Source: Centroscyllium fabricii (Eukaryota). Taken from it: DNA of 64,000 bases. The stretch spans positions 186,001-250,000 of the forward strand of contig JBNRSN020000524.1 of the NCBI GenBank assembly GCA_051313645.2. The letters are read 5' to 3'. Below are positions 14,517 through 53,768 of the stretch, piece after piece (position 1 is the first letter of the stretch; every line of letters starts with the position of its first letter). A program made the position numbers and the translations under genes. Under the pieces are notes generated by a model that saw only the letters and a program-made list of their open reading frames with translations, had not been told where the DNA came from and made no database searches.

Positions 14517-15236
14517 GTGTGGTTTAAAAATCGTCGCGCCAAATGCCGCCAGCAGCAGCAGAACGGAGGCAGCGCCAAAGCCCGGCCGGCCAAGAAGAAA
14601 TCGTCGCCGACCCGGGAGAGCAGTGGCTCGGAGAGCAGCGGTCAGTTCACCCCGCCCGCCGTCTCCAGCTCCTCCAGCTCATCCAGCAGCGGCCCCGGCA
14701 CCAACTCCAGCAGCGGTCCGGCCTCCTCCGTGCTCAGCACCCCCGCCTCCATCTGGAGCCCGGCCTCTATCTCCCCGGGGGCCGCAGTCGGGGAGCCTCT
14801 GGCCGCCAGCGCTTCCTGCATGCAGCGCTGCTCCGCCTCGTCCTCTTCCAGCGCCTACCCCATGGCATACGGGCAAAGCAGCGGCTACACCCAGGGCTAC
14901 CCGCCCTCCTCCTCCTACTTCGGCGGCGTGGATTGTAGCTCGTACCTGGCACCCATGCATTCCCATCACCCCCACCACCCCCACCACCAGCTGTCTGCCC
15001 ACGGCGCTGCCCTCAGCCCCATGAGCACCTCGACCATGTCTGGGCATCACATCAGTCAGAGCGCCCATCACCACCACCACCACCATCACCAGGGCTACAC
15101 GGGGCCAGGACTGACATTCAACTCGCCGGACTGCTTGGATTACAAAGACCAGACCTCCTGGAAACTCAACTTCAACACAACAGACTGTTTGGATTACAAG
15201 GACCAGACCCCGTCCTGGAAGTTTCAAGTCTTATGA
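14517..15236 (+). CDS. OTX1: OTX1 coding exon 3 (K50 helix, SIWSP motif, His tracts, tandem OTX tails)
   Basis: [15 protein letters not shown]...SIWSP...HHHHHHHH...[12 protein letters not shown]...[17 protein letters not shown]; His runs and EHBP1/WDPCP synteny identify Otx1; total CDS 969 nt. Confidence 0.98.
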
Positions 15237-32135: not shown

Positions 32136-33412
32136 AGTAGAATGTCTGTCTCTTTGTGCACTGTCAATAGCCATAGTCTTCCACTAGATTTGTTATATTC
32201 TGGTTCAATCAATCTTCCTTTTTCAAATTGAAAGATGTTCCACATGATTTTCTGTCTTTTTTATATAGACTGCAAGGAAATATGACTCTTGTGTCTTTGA
32301 AAACTAGACCTTTTATGAGTGCAAATTCTCTAATTTCATTAATCGTGACATCCTTGTTTTGCTTTAGTCGCCAATTTTCTATAGTTGACATAGGAACAGG
32401 AGTAGGCCATTTAGCCCCTCGAGGCTGTTCCGCCAGTCAGAGATCATAGCTGATGTGTAACCTAACTCCGTATACCCGCCTATGCTCCATATCTCCTAGA
32501 TTTTTGTTAACCAAAAGGTATTATCACTTTCAGATTTAAAATTAACAATTGACCCAGCATCAATTGCCATTTGCAGGAGAGTTTTCCAAACTTCTACCAC
32601 CTTTGGTGAATCTGCATTCTCTGTCTGTACGCGTCCACTGTCTTATCCGTTCAAGTCTCTGTTCAGACACTTGGTATCAAGCTGTGCACACACGCTGTCA
32701 CTTCACCATCACTGGAACTTTGACAATCTTTACAAGGGCTTGGAAGAAGGTGTCAGCTGTGTATATTAATTTTACAGGAGTGTATATCACGTCGATCATA
32801 CTTCAGCAATCTTTATATTCTTAGTTGACCATCATTGTGATTGCTTTTTGCAAATAGGAATCAAAGGCTTATGATTGGCCTCAAATGCTACATTTCCTTC
32901 TCTATTCGGGCATATCTGTGCACATTGCCTGTCACTCACGACTACTGCTTTCTAGCCATTGTGTTTCTGGTGCAATATAGCACTGAACTGACATTGACTT
33001 TCATTTGCAGTGATCTTGCCTGGCATTTTTGGATCCTAAAGTAAACAAGATATTACCATATCTATAAACTCTTGGCATATTTTTTCTGCTTGTGTAACTA
33101 TGAATATAGGATATTCTTTTCTAGCAACGTTCTTAAGGTGCCGCACTGGTGGATGAATCTGGAATGTATCTTTCCAGGTAACCAGGAAATCCTTGCAGTT
33201 CCATTATTGGTGGCGAGTTTACCCATGTTGATTACTGCCTCCGCTTTCGGTAGCCTTCCATGCCCTGGTCTGTGACTCGGTCTACTATGAAAGTGTTAGT
33301 TCATATATAACATCCCCTTTTGTTGAACTTCAGATTATTCTTCCTGACTCTGGAGCACTTGCCTGAATCTGGTATGTCAGCCGTGGCTCAACAACAGCTT
33401 GCATTTATATAG

Positions 33413-36400
33413 TGTGGCGACACGCTCACCAACAACATCGAATCCGCCTCGGGAGCGCTGCAAGACGGCGCCGCCCACTGGGCGGCGTGCTGACGTCACC
33501 GCGACTTCCGGCGTGATGATGTCGCCAGGTGGATACCCGGCAGTGACGTCACCTGCCGCGGGACCTTTAAATACCTGGGCTCCAGGTGGCTCAGTCTCTT
33601 TTCCACCTGGCCCTAGCTGTAACAACATTAAATGATAATTTTCCGAATCCCCTGTGTCCAGTGTGGTTCTTCGGCCCTGCATGCCTCTACAGTGGTGACC
33701 TCGATACTTGGGACGATTCCCAAGGGAACAATAAAGCAGTCGCTGCAGGACTGAGGGCCAAGCTGCCTCAGTGGAATCGCTACCACCATGCCAGCAGGGA
33801 TCGATACAGCACGCCACCACAGACGGGGCCAACACTGCAGCCAAATCCCAACTCTACCCGAGTTCTGGGAACTCCGTCCAGCGGCCTGGTTCCTCAACAC
33901 TGAGAACACCTTCCGCATCTATGGCGTGTAGGGGGACGATCGCTACAGCCTGCTCTTCGCAGCCCTTGCCCAGCCCACCATCGACAGAATGTGAGACTCC
34001 ATCGAGCAAGAACCTACTGCTTGCAGGTATGAAACGCTAAAGGCCCGCTGCTCCAAAAATTTACCCCCACCGTTTTTGAGCGCGATTGCCAGGTCATTAA
34101 CCTCCCCGACCTGGGGGACGCAGACCCCACCGACCTGTGGGCCCAATTCGAAGCGCTTAACTGCGACCCGGCCACTCTCAAGCGCGCCTTGTACCTCCTT
34201 AAACTGCCCCACTCCGTCAGACCGGCTCTGACGCTCCTGGAGCACCTCCCAACCAAGCAAGTAGCTCAGGAGGCCGAGCGCACCCGCGCCACCATGCACC
34301 GTAACGCTGCCGCCCCACCAGAGCAGCACTACACGCAACCCAGGCCCCGAGCCAGAGCTGTGCGGACCCACAAAAAAACCACGCACCGCGGGCCCAGGCT
34401 GGTGCTACTACCACCACACCAGGTTTGAGGCCAAAGCGCAGCGCTGCGTCCAGCCCTGCACCTTCAAACCCCAAACCAGCCCAGGCCCCACCATGTCCGT
34501 AGGCCGCTCCGGAGCACTGCTCTTCGTCATAGACAGTGTCTCAGGCCTCCACTTCCTCTGCGACACAGGCGCGCAGCACAGCATCGTGCCAGCCTCCCCC
34601 GCAGAAGCCAAGCAAGGCACCCAAGGCCCACCACTTGAAGCCGCAAACGGCTCCGAGATACTCACGTACGGCACCCGCCAGCTTATCAAACTGGCAGGCC
34701 ACACGTACACGTGGGACTTTATCACTGCACAAGTTAAAACACCCCTACTCGGGGCCGACTTTCTGTGCGCCCACGGCCTCCTGGTCGACGTTACCCGACG
34801 CCGCCTGGTCGACATCCACAACATGTCGACCATCCCATGCTCCACAAGGCCGGCACACCAGACCCACGCAGCGGCCCACTGCCGAGCCCGGAACTCCGAC
34901 ACGTACGCCACGCTGCTCGCGGAGTTCCCAGCCCTAACCAACCCCACCTTCACAGCCCGCACGGCCAAGCACGGGGTGGAGCATCACATCACCACCACAG
35001 GCCCCCCGGTCCATGCCCACGCACGCAGGCTGGACCCGGCCAAGCTGGAGATCGCGCGCGCCGAGTTCCACATCATGGAACAACTCGGCATTATCCGCCG
35101 CTCCAGCAGCCCCTGGGCCTCCCCCCTCCACATTGCCCCCAAACCCGATGGTGGCTAGCGCCCCTGCGGGGACTACCGCCGCCTTAACAACGCCACCACC
35201 CCAGACAGGTGCCCCACATCCAGGATTTTTCCGCAAGGCTAGCCGGCTGCACGGTCTTCTCAAAGATCGACCTGGTACGGGGCTACCACCAGGTACCGGT
35301 GCACCCGGCGGACGTCCCTAAGACAGCCGTCATCACCCCATTCGGCCTTTTTGAATTTCTCCGAATGCCCTTCGGACTCAAAAACACGGCCCAGGCCTTC
35401 CAACGCCTCATGGACTCAGTCCTACGGGACTTGCAGTTCACGTTCGTCTATCTAGACGACATCCTCGTGGCCAGCACCTCCCCCCCAGGAACAACACCTC
35501 CATCTCGGGGCCCTTTTCAACCGCCTGGCCGAACACGGCCTTATATTAAGCCCCTCCAAATGTCGATAGCCTCGAGGCCGAATCGACTTCCTCGGCCACC
35601 ATATCTCCCAGACCGGGGCCATACCCCTGCCCTCCAAGGTGCAGGCGGTCCAGGAATTCCCTCGCCCGCACTCCATCAAGGGGATGCAGGAATTCCTTGG
35701 GATGGTTAACTTTTACAACCGTTTCATCCCCGGAGCAGCCGCTCTCATGGCCCCCCTCTACCACGCCACCCGCGGGCAGTCCAACAAGGCTGTGGACGGC
35801 CGAAGCCACCACCGCCTTTACTGCAACCAAAACCGCCCTGGCCAACGCCACTCTCCTCAGCCACCCTAGGCCCAACGCCAGAGTAGCCCTCACCACCGAC
35901 GCCTCCGACCGCGCTGTCGGAGCAGTCTTTGAGCAGTGGACGGGCGACTCCTGGCAGCCCCTGGCCTTTTTCAGCCGACAACTCCGGCCCCCGGAGGTCA
36001 AGTACAGCACCTTCGATAGGGAGCTCCTCGCGGTGCGCCACTTCCACTTCCTCCTAGAGGGCCGCCACTTTACAGCCTTCGTGGATCACAAGCCACTTGT
36101 GTCCGCAATGGCTAAGATCTCTGAACCCTGGTCGGCCAGGCAGCAGCGCCAGCTCGCGGCCGTGTCTGAATTCACGACCGATATCCAGCACATCGCCGGC
36201 CGCGACAATGTGGTCGCTGACTGCCTCTCGCCCCACCATCAGCGAACCAGCCCCCGACCACCCCCCACGCCCCACCATCGACAACGTGGTCGCCGACTGC
36301 CCCCCACGACCCACCACCGACAATGCCTGCGCGCACTGCCTCTCGCCCAACCATCAACTCCGTCCAAACGGCCGTCGACTATACTAAAATGGCAGCCGAC

Positions 36401-38163
36401 CAACTAACCGACCCCGATCTGCTCGACCCTGCCACCAACCTCCCCGGCCTGCTCCTGGCCACCGTAGCACACGGGCCCACAGCCACAGAGATCCGCTGCG
36501 ACATTACCCTCCCCCAACCCAGACCCGTCATCCCCCACACATGGAGGCGCCACATCTTCCAGACCCTCCATGGCCTGTCCCACCCAGGTGTCCGCGCGTC
36601 CACCAAACTCATTTCTGCGCGATTCGTTTGGCGCGGCCTACGTAAAGACGTCCGCGCCTGGACCAACTCCTGCAATGCCTGCCAGCGCGCCAAGGTGCAC
36701 AACCACATCAAGGCACCGCTCGAAACCATCGCCGTCCCAGCCAGGCGCTTCAGCCACGTACACGTCGACCTCGTCGGACCACTACCACCATCAAGTGGAC
36801 ATCCACACATTTTAACGATGGTCGACCGCAGCACCCGCTGGCCAGAGGCAGTTCCCCTCACAGCTACCACCACCGCCGACCTCGCCAGGGCCTTCATTGC
36901 CACCTGGGTCGCCCGTTTTGGCGTCCCCACCGACATCACCTCAGACGGGCCCCCAATTTACCTCAACCCTATGGGCAACCATTGCCCACGACCTCGGGGC
37001 AACCCTGCACCGAACCACCGCCTACCACCCACAGGCCAATGGCCTCTGCGAACGGTTCCACCGATCTTGCAAAGCTTCCTTGCGGGCCAGCCTCCAAGAC
37101 GCAACCTGGACTGACCGCCTGCCCTGGGTAATGCTCGGCCTGCGCTCAGCGGCCAAGGAAGACCTGCACGCCTCAGCAGCTGAACTGGTCTATGGCCAAC
37201 CACTAACGGTACCGGGCGAGTTCGTGGCAGAAACTAACGAACCCTGGTCAGCCGAGCGCTGCCTCAGAGACTTTAATAACCAGGCAGCAGCATTCAAACC
37301 ACTCCCGGTGGCCCGGCACGGACAGCCGGCAGCACGGGTCCCAGACGGCATCCAAGATGCCAAGTATGTGTTTGTCCGCCACGACGCACACCGAACACCG
37401 CTGCAACCACCGTACGACGGACCATTCAGAGTGCTTCGGGCGGGACCCAAAACTTTTGAAATTAAAATGGGCAAGAGAGCCGAGACCGTCTCCATTGACC
37501 GGCTCAAACCAGCACACGTAATGGCGGGCGAGACAACAGTCCCCGCACAGCCACCAAAGCGCGGACGCCCTACCGCACCAAACCCCGCCCACACTCCTAT
37601 GCAGAACAGGGAGCAGCGCACGTCACGTGCGGGCCGCATCATCAGGCCACCTCAGCGCCTTGCCTGAGACGACACGTGCAGGCTACACCAGCCGCCGCAA
37701 CATCAATTTTCGGAACACGGAACAGCGCACGGCACGTGCGGGCCACAACATCAGGCCGCCTCGGCAAACTGCCGGACATTCTATGTGTTAATCGAAAATG
37801 TGTGCTTGCTCTCCTTTATGTCTCCTTCTCCTCCTCCTCTAGGTCCAGCCCAGCTCTCCCTCACGGATTCTGGGGTGGGAGCTGTGTGGCGACACGCCCA
37901 CCAACAACATCGAATCCGCCTCGGGAGCGCTGCAAGACGGCCCCGCCCGCCGGGCGGCGTGCTGACGTCACCGCGACTTCCGGCGTGATGACGTCGCCAG
38001 GTGGATACCCGGCAGTGACGTCACCTGCCGCGGGACCTTTAAATACCTGGGCTCCAGGTGGCTCAGTCTCTTTTCCACCTGGCCCTAGCTGTAACAACAT
38101 TAAATGATAATTTTCCGAATCCCCTGTGTCCAGTGTGGTTCTTCGGCCCTGCATGCCTCTACA
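33413..38163 (+). mobile_element. Full-length Gypsy LTR retrotransposon, CsRN1-like clade, ORFs disrupted
   Basis: 279-bp LTRs 33413-33691 and 37885-38163 (TG...CA), 4-bp TSD ATAG, tRNA-Trp-like PBS tggtgacc, PPT ggggtgggag, Gag CHCC knuckle 34403-34459, protease LCDTGA, RT YLDD 35449-35460, RNase H TDASD, integrase HHCC/DDE/GPF. Confidence 0.96.
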
Positions 38164-44938: not shown

Positions 44939-46626
44939 CTGCAGAGGAAGAACATGTTTTTAATAAGCATGAAAATTACATAGTAACTAATTATAAATTA
45001 TGATGTGGAGGTGCTGGTGTTGGACTGGGGTGGACAATTTGTGAGAAGTCTCACAACACCAGGTTATAGTCCAACAGTTTTATTTGAAATAACAAGCTTT
45101 TGGAGCGCAGCTCCTTCATTAGGTGCATGTAAAGAGATTCATTTAAACACAGCATATATATATATAGCGGGAGAGAACAATGTAGTCTCTCCAACTGTTC
45201 AACATCACACCTCAGCAAAGAGACATCAAAGGTGTTCTAACATATCAGTCAGGCATCAGCCTGAGATCAATGAGGTGCAGTCACAAAGGGTCAAATGTTG
45301 CAGTCTGGTGTCTGTGAAAACCCACAATGATTATTTTTTTAAAAAGGGGTTTTCTTACTGGAAATCGCAGCCGTATCCGCGTAGTGAGAACAAGCCAAAG
45401 ACGACTCGAGTCTGAATGAGACTACGTCAGGCGGGGTCACGTAGCGCAACATGAAGCCAATATCACGGTTGAGGCCGTGCTCATGGGTGCGGAACTTGGC
45501 TAACAGCACTGCTCGACGATTTTGCGTTGTCGTGTGTCTCGAAAGCCACTTTGGAGAATGCTTACCCGAAGATCGGAGGCTGAATGTCCTGGACTGCTGA
45601 AGTGTTCCCCGACTGGGAGGGAACACTCCTGCCTGGCGATTGTTGTGTGGTGTCCATTCATCCGTTGTCGCAGTGTCTGCATTGGTCTCGCCGATGTACC
45701 ATGCTCCGGGGCCTGCAACATCTCGGGTAGACAACGTTGGTCGAGTCACATGAGTATGTACCATGTACCTGGGTGTGTGGTGTCCTCGTGTGATGATGGT
45801 ATCTGTGTTGATCTGGCACGTCTTGCAGAGGTTGGCGTGACAGAGTTGTATGGTGTCATGGTCGCTGTTCTCATGAAAGCTGGGTAATTTGCTGCGAATG
45901 ATGGTCTATTTGAGGTTAGGCGGCTGTTTGAAGGCGAGTAGTGGAGGCGTGTGGATGGCCTTAGCAAGGTGTTTGTTGTCATTGATGACATGTTGAAGGC
46001 TGTGAAGAACTTCCCCGGAGCGGAGAAACTACGCCATGTTCTTCGCAGCCTTCAACATGTCATCGATGACGACGAACACCTCGCTAAGGCCATCCCCACG
46101 CCTCCACTACTCGCCTTCAAACAGCCGCCTAACCTCAAACTGTTGAGTCCGTGCTATGTGTCTCATATAACAACGGACTAGACTCCAAGGTATAAAACAA
46201 GGAGGTGTTTATTCTACAATTAGAGTATGGAACTGAGCATATCGCTCCACGTACGAACTTATATACACTTGTGGTAGACCGCGGTACTGCAGTATTACGG
46301 CACTACACAAAGTAGTGCCCAGTAGAATTACTTAAAGGCACATACACAACATTCCTCCCCTCTTAATTTACCTTTACGGTTACAATGCTTCACAATACGA
46401 GGGAAATAACAATTAACGATTTTTACAACAGTAGTATACATACATGTTCTAGTTATGTTTGTCTCTTACAACAATTTTCGATACCATTCTATTCATTATA
46501 ACATTTTTACCAATTTTAATGATTTCTAGTTTTTCTACGATGGTGTTGTTTCTTTGCTTTCGCGGTCGGCTCCTTGACCTGATAGCTTTACTCCTCAGCT
46601 GTCCCAAACAACAACCCCAGCTTCCC

Positions 46627-46688
46627 AGTGGTGCAGGCTCGACGGACCGAATGGTCTACTCCTGCACCTATTTTCTATGTTTCTATGT
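46627..46688 (+). mobile_element. 62-bp SINE/CR1 tail fragment inserted at the end of the coiled-coil ORF
   Basis: caggctcgacggaccgaatggtctactcctgcacc...ctatgtttctatgt; 5-bp TSD ttccc (46622-46626 / 46689-46693). Confidence 0.85.
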
Positions 46689-47203
46689 TTCCCGAGTTCA
46701 GCATTCACACAGTCGAGTTTCATTTCAACCTCAACTTTACCTTCCAACAATAGCACTTTCTCCTGCTCCATTACAGCGAGTTCCTCCTGAAGTCCATCAA
46801 CCTCTTCAATTGACTGTTTAAAAAGGTTCTGCACTACTAGCAGGTTCTTTTCAGTCTCTTGCTGCTTGACTATTGCAACCAAGCACTTTTCTTCCATGTC
46901 AGTGGAGAGCTGCTCCAACTTGCTCTCATAGTCAGTTACTTTGGAGCTCAGCTGTATATGAAGATCCTTAATTTGTTCCTTGGCCTCATCCAAATAATCT
47001 TGCAGTACTTTGTTCTTTTCACGCAACTCCTGTGTCAGAGCATGAAGTTTGTCCATTTCTTTGTCCCGATCCTGGTGCATCTCCTCCAGTGACTCATTTC
47101 TGTCCTGCAATGCAGCCACTGTAGCTTTGGAGGTTTGTAGCTCAGCTTGCAGAAATTTCACTTGACCTTTGAAACGAATCTGGAGACAACTGATCTCCTT
47201 ATC
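46689..47203 (-). pseudogene. Intronless coiled-coil coding segment, HMMR/RHAMM-like, carried inside the LTR element
   Basis: open frame DKEISCLQIRFKGQVKFLQAELQTSKATVAALQDRNESLEEMHQDRDKEMDKLHALTQELREKNKVLQDYLDEAKEQIKDL...; resembles teleost HMMR as I recall it (not searched). Confidence 0.6.
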
Positions 47204-50038
47204 CCAGTCTTATTCAATTCAAGTTTGTGTATTTCTGAAGTAGAGCCACCATCAGGGACTGAACAACTTTCTGAAACAGCAGTCCTATTGGAAATCACAG
47301 GAAGGTTATTTAGAAGACCTTTCTTTTTATTAACGTTCTTCCCAGATTTAGAGTCGACTACTGGGCTCTGAGTACTGTTAGTTAAGTCCTTGCAGCCCCT
47401 TTGTGTGTCTGGGGTGCTTGCCGGTATCCGTGATGGAGGTGCGTAACTCAGTTCAGCACCATAAGGCAACGTGCCATCTTTTGGTTCAGCCACTTCAGCA
47501 CCAATGGTCACGTTACTCAAAGTCTCTCCTTCAGTTGTCTGAAGTGCTCCGTTCAAGCGTGATCGGTTGTGTTGATACTCCCACTCACTTTGTGCAGTCC
47601 GCAACAATTCAATTTGGCCTCGGGCTTCCTGCAGCCTGAGTCAGACGGGAAATATGCATCTGGTGTATATCCAGTCTGTCTGACGTGGCTGCATCATTTT
47701 CCTCAACCTCTATGTGTAAGTCATGGATCGAGTTCCAACCGATATGGAGCTTTTTTATCCATTCACGCCCCAGGAGTGGTGATCCCCCGCTCTTGGAAAC
47801 ATACAGGTACAGTACCTTTACTTTTGTGTCCTTATATTGGACTGTTACGGGCAGTCTCCCCATTTTTCGGAACTTCTGTCCTGTATATGTTTTTAATATA
47901 ACCGGGGATTCTTCTAAAGGCACCCCTCTGAATGCCTTTCTGTAAACCTTTTCATTGATAACGGAGAGGGCTGACCCCGTATCTAATTCCATTAACATCT
48001 CAACCCCCGCAACCTTGAGGGGAACCCACATACTACTGCGGTCTGTGGAATTGACCATATCGTGGACTTTGAGACTTCCAAGACCCCATTCTTCTCTATT
48101 TGAATTTTCTGATTCGTCACCCTAACCATCTTCAGAGAGTTTGTGTACCTTCTTAGACCTGGTCTGTTTCTGTAATATTGTAGTTAGCTTCCCAGATCTG
48201 CAAACCGCCGCTATATGGCCTATCTTGCCGCACTGTCGACAATCCTTATCTTTAGCCCAACACTTACTCTGGTCGTGTGTGGTCTTTCCGCAGCGGTAGC
48301 ACTTTTTAGTGCGGGTTGTAATTTCATGGGTATCGTAGTCGATCCCCTTGTTCCTTATCTCTGTTGCCCCCACAGCAGCTGCCTCGTATGCTGCAGCGAT
48401 TTCTATCGCCTGCTTTAGCGTGAGCGTCTTTTTGGCCAATAGTCTCTTTTGGGTAGATTCATCCAAAATTCCACACACAAGTGTGTCCCTTAAGTAGTTT
48501 GGCAGTTGATCCCCAAATACAGTTTTTAGATAGTCTTCTGAGTTCCGTTAAGTACTCTGACTGTGACTCTCCTTTTTGTTGGTCCCGTTTAAAGAACTTG
48601 AAGCGTTCTGCTATAAATGATGGTTTGGGGTTTAAGTTTGCTTTTAAAATGTCTATAATCTGTTGTAGTGTTTTGTCCACTGGCTTATCTGGGGGCACCA
48701 GAGTTCTCAACAACCCGTAAGTTTCAGACCCCATTGCATTCAGTAGGGTGCTGGCTTTGTTTGCATCAGTGACTGCCTGTACTTGGCAATAAATGTCAAA
48801 GCGTTCTAGGTATGCCTCCCAGTCTTCCTTTTCTAGTTGGAAGGCCCCGAATGTGTCTGATTTTGCCATGGTTAAGTTTCCCAATGGCGTCCAAAATGGC
48901 GTCTTTTCCCGCCTTTTTGCTTCTCTTCTGGCACTTTTCCCGTCTCAAAATGCCGTTTTCCCGCCTTTTTCTGTCCTTTTCCGATTACCTGCGATCGCTG
49001 GAAGGATTGCGCTCTACCTGGATTCTCCCGTTGTCCTGTGGCTGGAGGACCAAACCTGATCCTCGACAGCCTCCGTGCACGACTGCCTCCACCGCGCTGG
49101 CTGTTCAGCGCTCCGCTGTCGACGTCCGACTGCCGCCGCTGATGGTTGCCCCTGCGGCCGACGCCCGATATCTGACTGCCGCTGCAGCACCGGCCCTGCC
49201 CCCGTGGCCGACGTCAGACTGCTGCTGTAGCACTAGCCCTACCCCGAGGTTGACGTCCAATGTCTGACTGCCGTTGCTGGGCTGGGTCCCCGAGTTCTGC
49301 TGCCTCCAGCCGTCGACGTTATTGCCAACGCTCCTCCCCGCAATGTTGAAGAGCTGGTTCTGCGGCCTACCTGCCGTTGCCGGGCTGGGTCCCCGATTTC
49401 TGCTGCCTCCTGCCGTCGACGCTATTGCCAACGCTCCTCCCTGCGATGTTGAAGAGCTGGCTGTGCTGCTAGTGCCAACGCCACTCCCGATGTTGGAGTG
49501 CTGGCTGTCTCTGTTCCCTCTGCGTCACTGGACAATCGCTGCCGCTCCCTCTTTTGGAGTGCAGGGTGTGTCGTTGTAGTCGATGGTCGCCGGTAAGAAA
49601 AAAATTCTCTCTCTTTTTCTTGTAAACCGCTTACACAGCTGTGGATTCGACCGACCTCATCGCATTGTTGTGTCCATGCTATGTGTCTCATATAACAACG
49701 GACTAGACTCCAAGGTATAAAACAAGGAGGTGTTTATTCTACAATTACAGAGTATGGAACTGAGCATATCGCTCCACGTACGAACTTATATACACTTGTG
49801 GTAGACCGCGGTACTGCAGTATTACGGCACTACACAAATTAGTGCCCAGTAGAATTACTTAAAGGCACATACACAACACAAATAGACCATCGTTCGCAGC
49901 AAATTACCCAGCTTTCACGAACAGCGACCACGACACCACACAACCCTGCCACGGCAACCTCTGCAAGACGTGCCAGATCATTAGCACAGATACCATCATC
50001 ACACATGAGGACACCACACACCAGGTACATGGTACATA

Positions 50039-50423: not shown

Positions 50424-51042
50424 TACATACTCATGTGACTCGACCAACGTTGTCTACCTCATACGTTGCAGGAAAGGATGCCCCGGAGCATGGTACATCG
50501 GCGAGACCATGCAGACACTACGACAACGGATGAACAGACACCGCGCAACAATCGCCAGGCAGGAGTGTTCCCTCCCAGTCGGGGAACACTTCAGCAGTCA
50601 AGGACATTCAGCCTCCGATCTTCGGGTAAGCATTCTCCAAGGTGGCCTTCGAGACACACGACAACGCAAAATCATCGAGCAGAGGCTGATAGCCAAGTTC
50701 CGTACCCATGAGCACAGCCTCAACCGTGATATTGGCTTCATGTCACGCTACATGTGACCCCGCCTGACGTAGAGTCATTCAGGCTCGAGTCGTCTTTGGC
50801 TTGTTCTCACTACGCGGATACGGCTGCGATTTCCAGTAAGAAAAACCCTTTTTTTTAAATCAGTGGGTTTTCACATAGACACCAGACTGCAACATTTGAC
50901 CCTTTGTGACTGCACCTCATTGATCTCAGGCTGATGCCTGACTGATATGTTAGAATCCCTTTGATTGCTTTGATGTCTCTTTGCTGAGGTGTGATGTTGA
51001 ACAGTTGGAGAGACTACATTGTTCTCTCCCGCTATATATATG

Positions 51043-51078
51043 CACCTGATGAAGGAGCTGTGCTCCGAAAGCTTGTGA
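51043..51078 (+). ncRNA. Minimal type I hammerhead ribozyme in Penelope terminal repeat
   Basis: cac-CTGATGA-a-ggagc/gctcc stem II-GAAA-gctt-gtg; palindromic aagctt stem III typical of dimeric PLE hammerheads. Confidence 0.75.
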
Positions 51079-51387
51079 TTTCAAATAAAACTGTTGGATT
51101 ATAACCTGGTGTTGTGTGACTTCTTACAATTATAAATTAGTTTGAGATTATTATTTCATAGAATCACAGAATGGTTACAGCACAGAAGGAGGCCATTCGG
51201 CCTGTTGAGCCCATGCTAGCTGCTAAAGCAAAATGTTAATGAGGAAATGCTCGAATAATCCACATTGTTCACTTACTTGTACTGAATCTAATACACAGAT
51301 ACTGGTTTAAGAATAGTAGCTTCAGTAGAACTCCAGCCTAAATCACTTAATTTAGTACAAACATTTGAAGCCATACAACCAGCTTTA

Positions 51388-52744
51388 TGCCCCGGTTTCA
51401 CTGGAGGCTACGAATTGCCGAATCGTGCCGATTGTGAAATTTGTCCGATTCGTGGGTAATTCTTGCGATTCGTAGTGGATTCGTAGTGGATTCGTAGCGG
51501 ATTCGTAGAGTTCGCGGAAGTTCGCGAGATTTCTTTGAGGTTTCAAGAAAGTTTTTGTTTGTCAAAAAATTTCGTGGGAGGGTTCACGAATGCCCAATTC
51601 GTGATAGATTCCTAAACAATTCGTGACCCTTTCTTATCGTTCTTAACCCTTTCTTACCGTTCTTAACTGATTTGTAGTGGATTCGTAGTGCATTCTTGCC
51701 TATTCTTGGGCATTCTTGATTTTCTCAAATTCGTGGAAAAACGCCGAATTCATCACGAATGTCCACGAATGTCCACGAATGTCCACGAATGCACTACGAA
51801 TGCAATTCGTAGATAATTCGTAGAATTCGTAACTAAATCGTGGAGGTCGTAGTGGATTCGTTAATTAATTCTTCATATTCGTGAGTGATTCGTACCTCAT
51901 TCCTACAATAATTCGTGATAGATTCTTAACCTTGTCCAGAATCGCCAAGAATTCACCAAGAATCGCCAAGAATCAACCACGAATTTTCGCATTTTTTGCA
52001 GAATCGCCAAGAATTTCGATTCCTGACGATTCTTGATATTCTTGACATTCTTAGCCTCCAGTGAAACTGGGGCATAATGCCCCAGTTTCACTGGAGGCTA
52101 AGAATGTCAAGAATATCAAGAATCGTCAGGAATCGAAATTCTTGGCGATTCTGCAAAAAATGCGAAAATTCGTGGTTGATTCTTGGCGATTCTTGGTGAA
52201 TTCTTGGCGATTCTGGACAAGGTTAAGAATCTATCACGAATTATTGTAGGAATGAGGTACGAATCACTCACGAATATGAAGAATTAATTTACGAATCCAC
52301 TACGACCTCCACGATTAAGTTACGAATTCTACGAATTAGCTACGAATTATCTACGAATTGCATTCGTAGTGCATTCGTGGACATTCGTGATGAATTCGGC
52401 GTTTTTCCACGAATTTGAGAAAATCAAGAATGCCCAAGAATAGGCAAGAATGCACTACGAATCCACTACGAATCAGTTACGAACGGTAAGAAAGGGTCAC
52501 GAACGGTAAGAAAGGGTCACGAATTGTTTAGGAATCTATCACGAATTGGACATTCGTGAACCCTCCCACGAAATTTTTTGCCAAACAAAAACTTTCTTGA
52601 AACCTCAAAGAAATCACGCGAACTTCCGCGAACTCTACGAATCCACTACGAATCCACTACGAATTGCAAGAATTACCCACGAATCGGACAAATTTCACAA
52701 TCGGCACGATTCGGTAATTCGTAGCCTCCAGTGAAACCGGGGCA
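51388..52744. mobile_element. Inverted dimer of a non-autonomous TIR element (PIF/Harbinger-like)
   Basis: units 51388-52074 and 52078-52744, each bounded by TIR tgcccc(g/a)gtttcactggaggcta; flanked by TTA / TAA / TAA trinucleotides; interior built of acgaat/aagaat repeats. Confidence 0.85.
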
Positions 52745-53768
52745 TAATGCAATGCACATTTGGAAGACCAGAATTATACTTAGCACTGGAATGCTGTGTA
52801 TGTAAACTTGGATGCATGCTAAGAGCTCCATTTCCCAAGTGGCTAATTTTCAATATTAGGAGCGGACACTTCCTTACAACATTAGAAAGATATCATGCAC
52901 CCATTTTTTAAATGTGGTTTCATGCTAGCCTAGAGTTATCCTGCAGTGTGGTATCTTGAACTGGTGTAAGGTGGCCTCTGGGAGGGGAGGGGGGGTCTCA
53001 TACGATTTGGGTTATGTCTGGAGTCAGATCAGGAATGAACTCGAGTTACACTGCCACTGTTGTGTCAATGCACACCCAAAACAGCTTTGTATTGACGTGA
53101 AAGTGACAGAATCACTGCACTCTATAAATGTTTTGTGTACTTTTTGTTTCTGAAGGAGATTTAAAATGTTCCTTTTTTGACACAATCGATCAATTCAACA
53201 ACATAACAGTTAGTCCACATCTTGCCATTTTTCTATAAAACTGATTTCAAATGTATGCATAATAGAGCTAAAATTAAATTTGAAATTATTTTTAGACAGA
53301 TATTTTTCCAAACAAATACATTTTGATACCCATGTATCTGTCAAAACACTGCAAAAAGTAAACCCATTTCATTCAGGATATAAAATAATCAATTGATCTA
53401 TTAGTTCTGATCTAAACAAATGATTACATTCTAGGAACATAGGAGCAATAGTAGGCCATTCAGCTCCTCGAGCATGTTGATAAATGGATAGAGTAGACCA
53501 AATAAGTTCTAGTGTGACACTGTATAACACAAGTGTTAAAAATAAAGAAAGTTGAAATAAATGATGGCCCTCAGTATAACTGATGCACATGGTCACGGTG
53601 GAAATGTTACAATTGAACCGGGTTGGTAAACGAAAAGGGTTCAACCTTTCCACTTGGAACATGAGCCAATTTTTTTCTCTTTCAGATGCTGATGGACCGG
53701 TGATTTATTTTCAACCTTTGTGTTTTTATATAAAATTAATTTATTGCATACACACAAAAAAATCTTAC

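Follow-up and report, generated by a model that had tools for sequence, protein, structure and literature searches.

A 1.36-kb palindrome in a putative WDPCP intron of Centroscyllium fabricii: two Harbinger-like MITEs joined end to end beside a 94-bp inversion

The window analysed in this work, a stretch of 64,000 nucleotides of the Centroscyllium fabricii genome (GenBank assembly GCA_051313645.2, contig JBNRSN020000524.1, positions 186,001 to 250,000), belongs to a 250-kb contig (C1072) and includes the 3' end of WDPCP, the last coding exon of a convergent gene which, from its sequence, we take to be OTX1, and a palindrome of 1.36 kb (Table 1). Neither the Frtz-domain search nor tblastn of the window returned a WDPCP exon; the gene was detected by the WDPCP C-terminal profile and by the VVHFGLV-stop motif, whose occurrence in the terminal exon is the sole match among the 1.64 million residues translated. 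Contig C1044 holds the Frtz-domain exons of WDPCP, as well as the next exon recognised by the C-terminal profile, the terminal exon being that of the window. The other WDPCP exon of Table 1 is a candidate only, its local alignment score (39) not being above that of other open frames. Its phase does not fit that of the terminal exon, so a further small WDPCP exon, or another donor, is likely. Judging from the positions of these exons, the palindrome would thus lie in a late WDPCP intron, as a preliminary description of this DNA had proposed, and the pre-mRNA read from the minus strand is predicted to form the long hairpin also proposed there, with 646 arm-to-arm pairs. There is an assembly gap in C1044 after the last WDPCP exon found there (C1044:144121934-144122133, L196), and C1072, carrying the WDPCP 3' end and OTX1, may belong in it. 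The window also has two LTR-retroelement-like insertions (33300-38100 and 46600-49500), carrying fragmented frames of the gag, protease, reverse transcriptase and integrase types.

Table 1 Features of the palindrome, its flanks and the neighbouring genes (positions in the window).
Feature	Position	Strand	Remarks
Last coding exon of OTX1-like gene	14517-15236	+	Converges on the WDPCP 3' end
Terminal WDPCP coding exon	44938-44888	-	Ends in the VVHFGLV-stop motif of homologues
Flank-to-flank joint of the inversion	51292..51293	.	TA, 2-base overlap of two TWA triplets, one base less than a triplet
Host intron, 94 bp, inverted compared to four outgroups	51294..51387	-	Last 3 bases TTA (51385-51387) are ancestral target site 1 backwards
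Element copy E1, 687 bp, non-autonomous Harbinger (MITE)	51388..52074	+	Left end to right end; subfamily 2
Left TIR of E1, 28 bp	51388..51415	+	
Right TIR of E1, 28 bp	52047..52074	-	
TAA joining both right ends (end-to-end joint)	52075..52077	.	27 further exact junctions of this kind in the genome
Element copy E2, 667 bp	52078..52744	-	Opposite orientation; subfamily of E1, different sub-lineage
Right TIR of E2, 28 bp	52078..52105	+	
Left TIR of E2, 28 bp	52717..52744	-	
TAA, ancestral target site 2	52745..52747	+	Directly after the inverted segment in outgroups
Candidate late WDPCP coding exon	54421-54321	-	AG acceptor, GT donor, weak C-terminal similarity to homologue

The palindrome is real and consists of two complete copies of a non-autonomous PIF/Harbinger element. 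Its two arms are reverse complements separated by the three bases of the TAA spacer, and their global alignment has 644 matches, 12 substitutions and 3 indels (11, 20 and 11 bp), all three in arrays of 10-11-bp subrepeats. Each arm has its own TIRs, identical in 26 of 28 positions, and there is no open frame of 120 or more amino acids across 51388-52744. The CpG observed/expected ratio is 1.62 and 1.65 in the arms, versus 0.36 and 0.23 in the flanks. The outer triplets (TTA on the left, TAA on the right) do not form a direct duplication. The preliminary description had the exact coordinates, the TIRs in each arm and the CpG-dense interior in a CpG-depleted intron right; its statement that the arms differ mainly in repeat copy number holds for the indels, and leaves out the 12 substitutions. 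Chance does not explain the palindrome: both arms belong to a family dispersed in the genome, where a search with the reversed pattern as control gave 0 junctions compared to 28 for the true one. Short-read contigs of the same organism, from runs that may derive from the source sample and hence are not independent of the assembly, match both outer junctions with 0 differences (pieces 51192-51409 and 52724-53400), the centre not being spanned. The palindrome itself is probably a neutral passenger, and no function is claimed for it. Just left of the inversion there are short high-copy repeats (51040-51130 and 51155-51221), presumably retroelement 3' ends, which have very high depth in all four runs of one short-read comparison.

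A search of the 7.2-Gb genome with one arm returned full-length copies in many contigs, with 96-100% identity (40 of 727 candidates scored), and the exact TIR pattern has 9,913 matches, corresponding to about 5,000 copies. Single copies measure 656-741 bp and form two subfamilies about 48 substitutions apart, with about 2.1 private changes per copy in both; the flanking consensus is T-W-A in nearly all of 140 ends, agreeing with the TWA target first suspected from this locus alone. Among the ends listed on contig C1 there is a 4,214-bp element (L058) with the TIRs of the MITE, encoding a DDE_Tnp_4 transposase (E 6.9e-28, above the cut-off) and, on the opposite strand, a protein resembling MADF, whose score of 20.6 bits (E 5.8e-4) narrowly misses the curated cut-off of 22 bits. 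The MITE ends resemble this element over the first 414 bp (84%) and the last 298 bp (94%), and copies of the transposase region are 99-100% identical (40 scored). These sequence features (a TWA target, TIRs common to a two-gene autonomous element, and non-coding high-copy members of uniform length) identify the family, a young one, as non-autonomous PIF/Harbinger elements, or Tourist-like MITEs. Like mPing with Ping/Pong and Harbinger3N_DR, as described in PMC4561436, PMC2836001 and PMC11254759, it is a non-coding TIR element with a 3-bp TWA target, whose partner encodes a DDE_Tnp_4 transposase and a Myb/SANT-like (here MADF) protein and would make a staggered cut through the triplet. Unlike mPing and Harbinger3N_DR, the present element is 660-740 bp long and consists largely of 10-11-bp subrepeats, and its TIRs start with TGCCCC instead of the GG(G/C)CC of the rice Harbingers (PMC4423477).

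The element showed no depth at 80% likeness in four outgroup runs, so a recent invasion of the genome by the family is likely on this comparison; the recent insertion proposed earlier for the palindrome is supported. The closest named transposase is from abalone (73% identity) and the closest unnamed one has 85% identity, values which, with the lack of depth in the outgroups, are suggestive of horizontal transfer. The elephant shark has been reported to be without Harbingers (PMC9179366), while the Centroscyllium fabricii genome, by its repeats apparently also that of a cartilaginous fish, holds a large, young family. Related Harbinger families are also present: about 80% identical autonomous elements, and a MITE of about 690 bp with CCCCGC TIRs (8,440 exact ends). 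They often adjoin the present family at a single TWA (L122:1187 onward, L182, L186; L115, L176-L179, L183-L185). Some copies of the family are nested at internal TWA sites of other copies (L033:363-1071, L050, L135, L163, L180).

The count of single versus joined copies suggested in the preliminary description gave 28 exact TIR-TWA-TIR junctions among the approximately 5,000 copies, compared to about 0.09 expected from the TWA density. Of these dimers, 17 have the inverted and 11 the direct arrangement; proper typing of the ends removed the surplus of inverted ones that the TIR base alone had suggested (17/28, p 0.34). A relaxed junction pattern has 125 matches, about 69 beyond the exact ones, and all 12 of these further junctions that were fetched adjoin a related element with 70-90% identity. 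Apparently unpaired single ends on C1 had a partner end in all 12 cases checked. Facing ends separated by 200 bp or less numbered 45 (41 after collapsing one five-copy tandem array) versus 0.7 expected; the spacers of the 41 pairs were 60-135 bp in 27 cases, below 34 bp in 11 and elsewhere in 3. Both members belonged to the same subfamily in 18 of 19 complete abutting exact dimers, compared to 16 of 27 pairs with a distance above 33 bp. A difference in age between the subfamilies is not supported as the cause, private changes per copy being about equal in both. Recreation of a preferred target motif by the element end was discarded: the base that the end places next to the triplet is A, the rarest one there at insertion flanks (8/140), so sequence preference does not explain the dimers. 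Both MITE multimers and dimers made by double insertion are already known, so that in a family undergoing a burst the palindrome is in itself nothing unusual.

According to the preliminary description, the palindrome arose by a second insertion into the TWA duplication of the first element (or by fold-back duplication, considered below). The second insertion describes other dimers well, since in 10 of the 13 with resolvable flanks these are colinear over one triplet, as in a plain double insertion. It is incomplete at the present locus, where there are a 94-bp inversion and two TAA sites. In four outgroup runs (X5, X9, X10, X12; four organisms, three studies) the element is absent and the segment 51294-51387 has the opposite orientation, with opposite-strand joints at 51274/51387-8 and 51292-4/52745-7; two letters fit either side of the joint at 51292, where X12 also has a loose end. 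Ancestrally, the left flank was followed by TAA (site 1), 91 bp, TAA (site 2) and the right flank. In the present genome the 91 bp are inverted together with site 1, E1 sits on site 1 (read as TTA) and E2 on site 2 with their right ends adjoining, and the two host ends set free meet near 51292 in a TA overlap of 2 bases, both inversion breakpoints being, to the base, the TAA triplets that touch the elements. No empty allele was found among the joints listed for the runs X1 and X3, and the ancestral state is that of other species rather than that of an empty allele of Centroscyllium fabricii. By this comparison, the locus is a dimer plus a 94-bp inversion of the host intron. A tandem dimer made by double insertion would also have one TAA at its junction, but here the outer flanks are not colinear from a single site, and simple double insertion is insufficient because the outgroups show the inversion between two separate TAA sites. 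In the alternative transposition of Ac/Ds, ends belonging to two elements are inserted together at a fresh target site, which is duplicated in the process; this was discarded, the free ends adjoining each other here and only two ancestral TAA sites, with no new target, being involved. Neither do the arms form one foldback element, the dispersed unit being the monomer and the arms belonging to different sub-lineages.

Rearranged flanks were found in 2 of the 13 resolvable dimers versus 0 of 25 cleanly resolved single copies (survey of 76 copies: 50 unresolved, 1 ambiguous, 25 clean 3-bp insertions), counts too few to show a coupling between dimers and rearrangement. One locus (L031) is a second right-to-right dimer without the 105-128 bp between two TWA sites, a deletion which we regard as the counterpart of the present inversion. 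Another (L013) has two same-facing neighbours at 96 bp with a colinear spacer.

The triplets flanking the copies were often different on the two sides. Among the single copies with TWA on both sides, 18 of 69 carried TTA at one end and TAA at the opposite end (a further 7 of the 76 had an odd triplet), as had 25 of 72 members of near pairs (2 odd), giving a pooled mismatch of 43/141 (30%, 95% interval 23-39%) versus about 0.2% expected from mutation. The paralogous empty sites of mismatched copies have one 3-bp triplet (as they would with a 1-bp duplication whose A is counted into the TIR), in line with the TWA target, and this triplet matches one side only: the left side in L011, L013b, L079 and L093, and the right side in L002 and in the nested copy of L033. 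One triplet of the mismatched copies is therefore foreign. The empty paralogue of L060 reads TCA, which is uninformative. As for the dimers, the middle triplet of L038 and that of L049 are each unlike the one at the empty site and unlike either outer one. Since the empty sites are 3 bp, a blunt target of 4 bp was rejected as the source of the TTA/TAA pairs. Retention of the donor overhangs at insertion probably accounts for the mismatches, the foreign triplet presumably coming from the donor: if donor and target mismatch in half of the events and each side is resolved at random, a mismatch of 25-33% is calculated, and the observed value was 30%. Repeated excision and re-insertion at one site could also produce mismatched triplets. 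Several single copies (L006, L008, L089, L092, L094, L097) have a canonical TWA on one side only, the opposite side showing additional bases or a triplet that is not canonical; such an outcome would follow from a donor overhang landing on a target that fits it imperfectly, or from excision of a neighbour.

The rearrangement at the palindrome was very probably made by the transposase; a transposase cut is the likely cause because recombination between repeats would make no such flank-to-flank joint. We propose, with a probability of about 0.5, that two same-facing copies 97 bp apart were cut by the transposase, and that repair joined ends to ends and flanks to flanks. Excision would be a staggered cut across the TWA triplet, leaving a 3-base overhang on both the element end and the host flank; at insertion, the overhang would anneal into the target gap, the mismatch of the middle base being resolved either way; resident copies would draw new insertions to their own triplets and about 100 bp off; and at the present locus the two right ends, whose pairing is an assumption of the model, would have been brought together and cut, after which ligation of the four sticky ends in the opposite sense would have produced the inversion, in the manner of inversional V(D)J joining. 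The 97 bp implied between the copies are inside the 60-135 bp peak of neighbour spacing, a same-facing pair at such a spacing does exist (L013), and the 2-base TA joint of the flanks is as expected from the end-joining of two mismatched TWA overhangs. Against this proposal, E1 and E2 belong to the same subfamily, as in 18 of the 19 abutting dimers, which mildly favours a dimer formed first. Repair of overhang mismatches in yeast was cleaner for T:T than for A:A (PMC4561436), a result which also counts against the proposal because the latter places the one-base loss at the T:T joint. The exact order of events in the proposal is an even bet: the final sequence alone cannot order them, one-ended transfer or uncoupled integration giving an identical product.

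A rather unlikely alternative is that the dimer came first, by insertion of the second copy into the TAA of the first at site 2, and that the outer left end was later transferred to the TAA 97 bp off, flipping the spacer. Double insertion is the usual route to the dimers of this genome (the 10 colinear cases of 13), arms of one subfamily are typical of abutting dimers, and the three triplets of the dimer are all as expected, with no foreign base; however, this order of events requires a one-ended strand transfer and host nicking of the other target strand, and adjacent inversions were found in none of the 25 resolved single copies, though any copy could make one. The same product could arise in one insertion step if the ends of one excised copy were uncoupled, the right end entering the resident TAA and the left end the TAA 97 bp off, inverting the spacer at once. 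Both landing spots are then at the two distances from a resident copy that the family favours, but such uncoupled integration is expected to be rare and 25 of 26 resolved single copies are clean 3-bp insertions, which makes it improbable. A plain double insertion with an unrelated inversion nearby would involve a dimer of a kind common in the genome; it is nearly excluded, since both breakpoints fall, to the base, on the triplets that border the elements.

Fold-back duplication of one copy, the other origin offered in the preliminary description, or a fold-back read or assembly artefact, scarcely merits credence. In its favour, the inner 212 bp of the arms are identical, and the centre was not spanned by any read seen. 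That right-end stretch is, however, also identical in 16 other copies and in 10% of same-subfamily pairs drawn at random, which makes gene conversion near the centre unnecessary as well. The arms differ at 12-14 sites and represent different sub-lineages of one subfamily; 10 of 14 differences in the multiple alignment are alleles that also occur elsewhere in the family, and for both arms other contigs hold copies closer than the partner arm, E2 being 2-3 substitutions from such copies, which rules out a twin origin. Moreover, 11 of the 28 genome junctions are direct, an arrangement impossible by fold-back, and both outer junctions are held by the short-read contigs.

The cut-and-rejoin proposal and the overhang retention have precedents in known systems. 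It has been proposed that mPing is cut across its target duplication, its excision leaving 5' overhangs derived from the duplication (PMC4561436), and excised mPing brings the donor TTA/TAA into Cas9 cuts (PMC11254759); the same account states that free transposition leaves an intact duplication, while about 30% of the present copies have a mismatched middle base. Excised piggyBac retains the donor overhang, of the length of the target duplication, and excision is seamless; the TTAA overhang can anneal into the target gap, the donor bases being written into the new site (PMC7351741). The overhang retention proposed for Harbinger would resemble this by analogy, although the transposase families are unrelated and piggyBac uses a 4-base TTAA via a hairpin; the degenerate middle base of the Harbinger target would make the carry-over visible at ordinary sites, unlike TTAA. 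In V(D)J signal joints and the end-to-end joints of hAT episomes (PMC2803484), as here, transposon ends are ligated together and flanks together, same-facing ends giving an inversion in which the joint is kept in the chromosome; unlike them, the present case would be an accident between two MITEs, joined via a TWA triplet. Tandem dimers of transposable elements made by double insertion were described by McGurk and Barbash (bioRxiv 10.1101/158386), and plant MITE multimers and MITE self-insertion are reviewed in PMC5172404; like these, the dimers found here are two elements around one target-site copy, from periods of high activity. In the account of 10.1101/158386 dimers are explained by target-motif preference and inverted dimers are set aside, whereas in the present family the base beside the triplet at the element end is the least used one, 17 of 28 dimers are inverted, and host DNA is inverted at one of them.

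Tentatively, and as something possible rather than probable, we suggest that this Harbinger may move with the 3-base sticky ends of the donor, ligated straight into the target, that it may recruit newcomers to its own ends and to a ring of about 100 bp, and that the sticky ends may allow neighbouring copies to be joined anew at their ends, much as in V(D)J signal joints. The literature searched (mostly open access) contained no genome-wide mismatched Harbinger duplications, no targeting peak at about 100 bp and no inversion with an end-to-end MITE joint; MITE dimers and mPing overhangs are already known. The cleavage and integration chemistry of PIF/Harbinger is known mainly from the excision footprints of mPing, now a genome-engineering tool, and a natural family whose insertions number in the thousands and have hardly mutated, whose autonomous copies have both genes intact and which bears an apparent donor mark at 30% of the sites makes overhang retention directly testable. 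If true, Harbinger would be a second superfamily, beside piggyBac, able to skip gap filling, its 'target duplication' would often be no duplication, and the family would generate kilobase palindromes, micro-inversions and micro-deletions in host introns; the present locus illustrates, at single-base resolution, the way in which a pair of MITEs can turn host DNA round and leave a 1.36-kb intronic palindrome. Identical flanking triplets are required by the pipeline of bioRxiv 10.64898/2026.05.26.728016, as described there, and pipelines with this requirement would discard the mismatched copies.

Other arrangements of the family were also observed. Seven of the 28 exact dimers (5 inverted, 2 direct: L034, L040, L042, L044, L046, L047, L053) have a truncated arm within the fetched stretch; the flanks of L047 are colinear, therefore its missing arm was deleted, and the other truncated arms could be interrupted by long insertions. 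Dimers may be unstable. At L165 (C933:144694900-144697700) there is a run of at least four elements, with three of them connected through single triplets and another at a distance of 54 bp, and at least five tandem units of about 2 kb, each with two element ends 193 bp apart, occupy C113:30303515-30311674 (L136-L140), a small satellite grown from a MITE pair.
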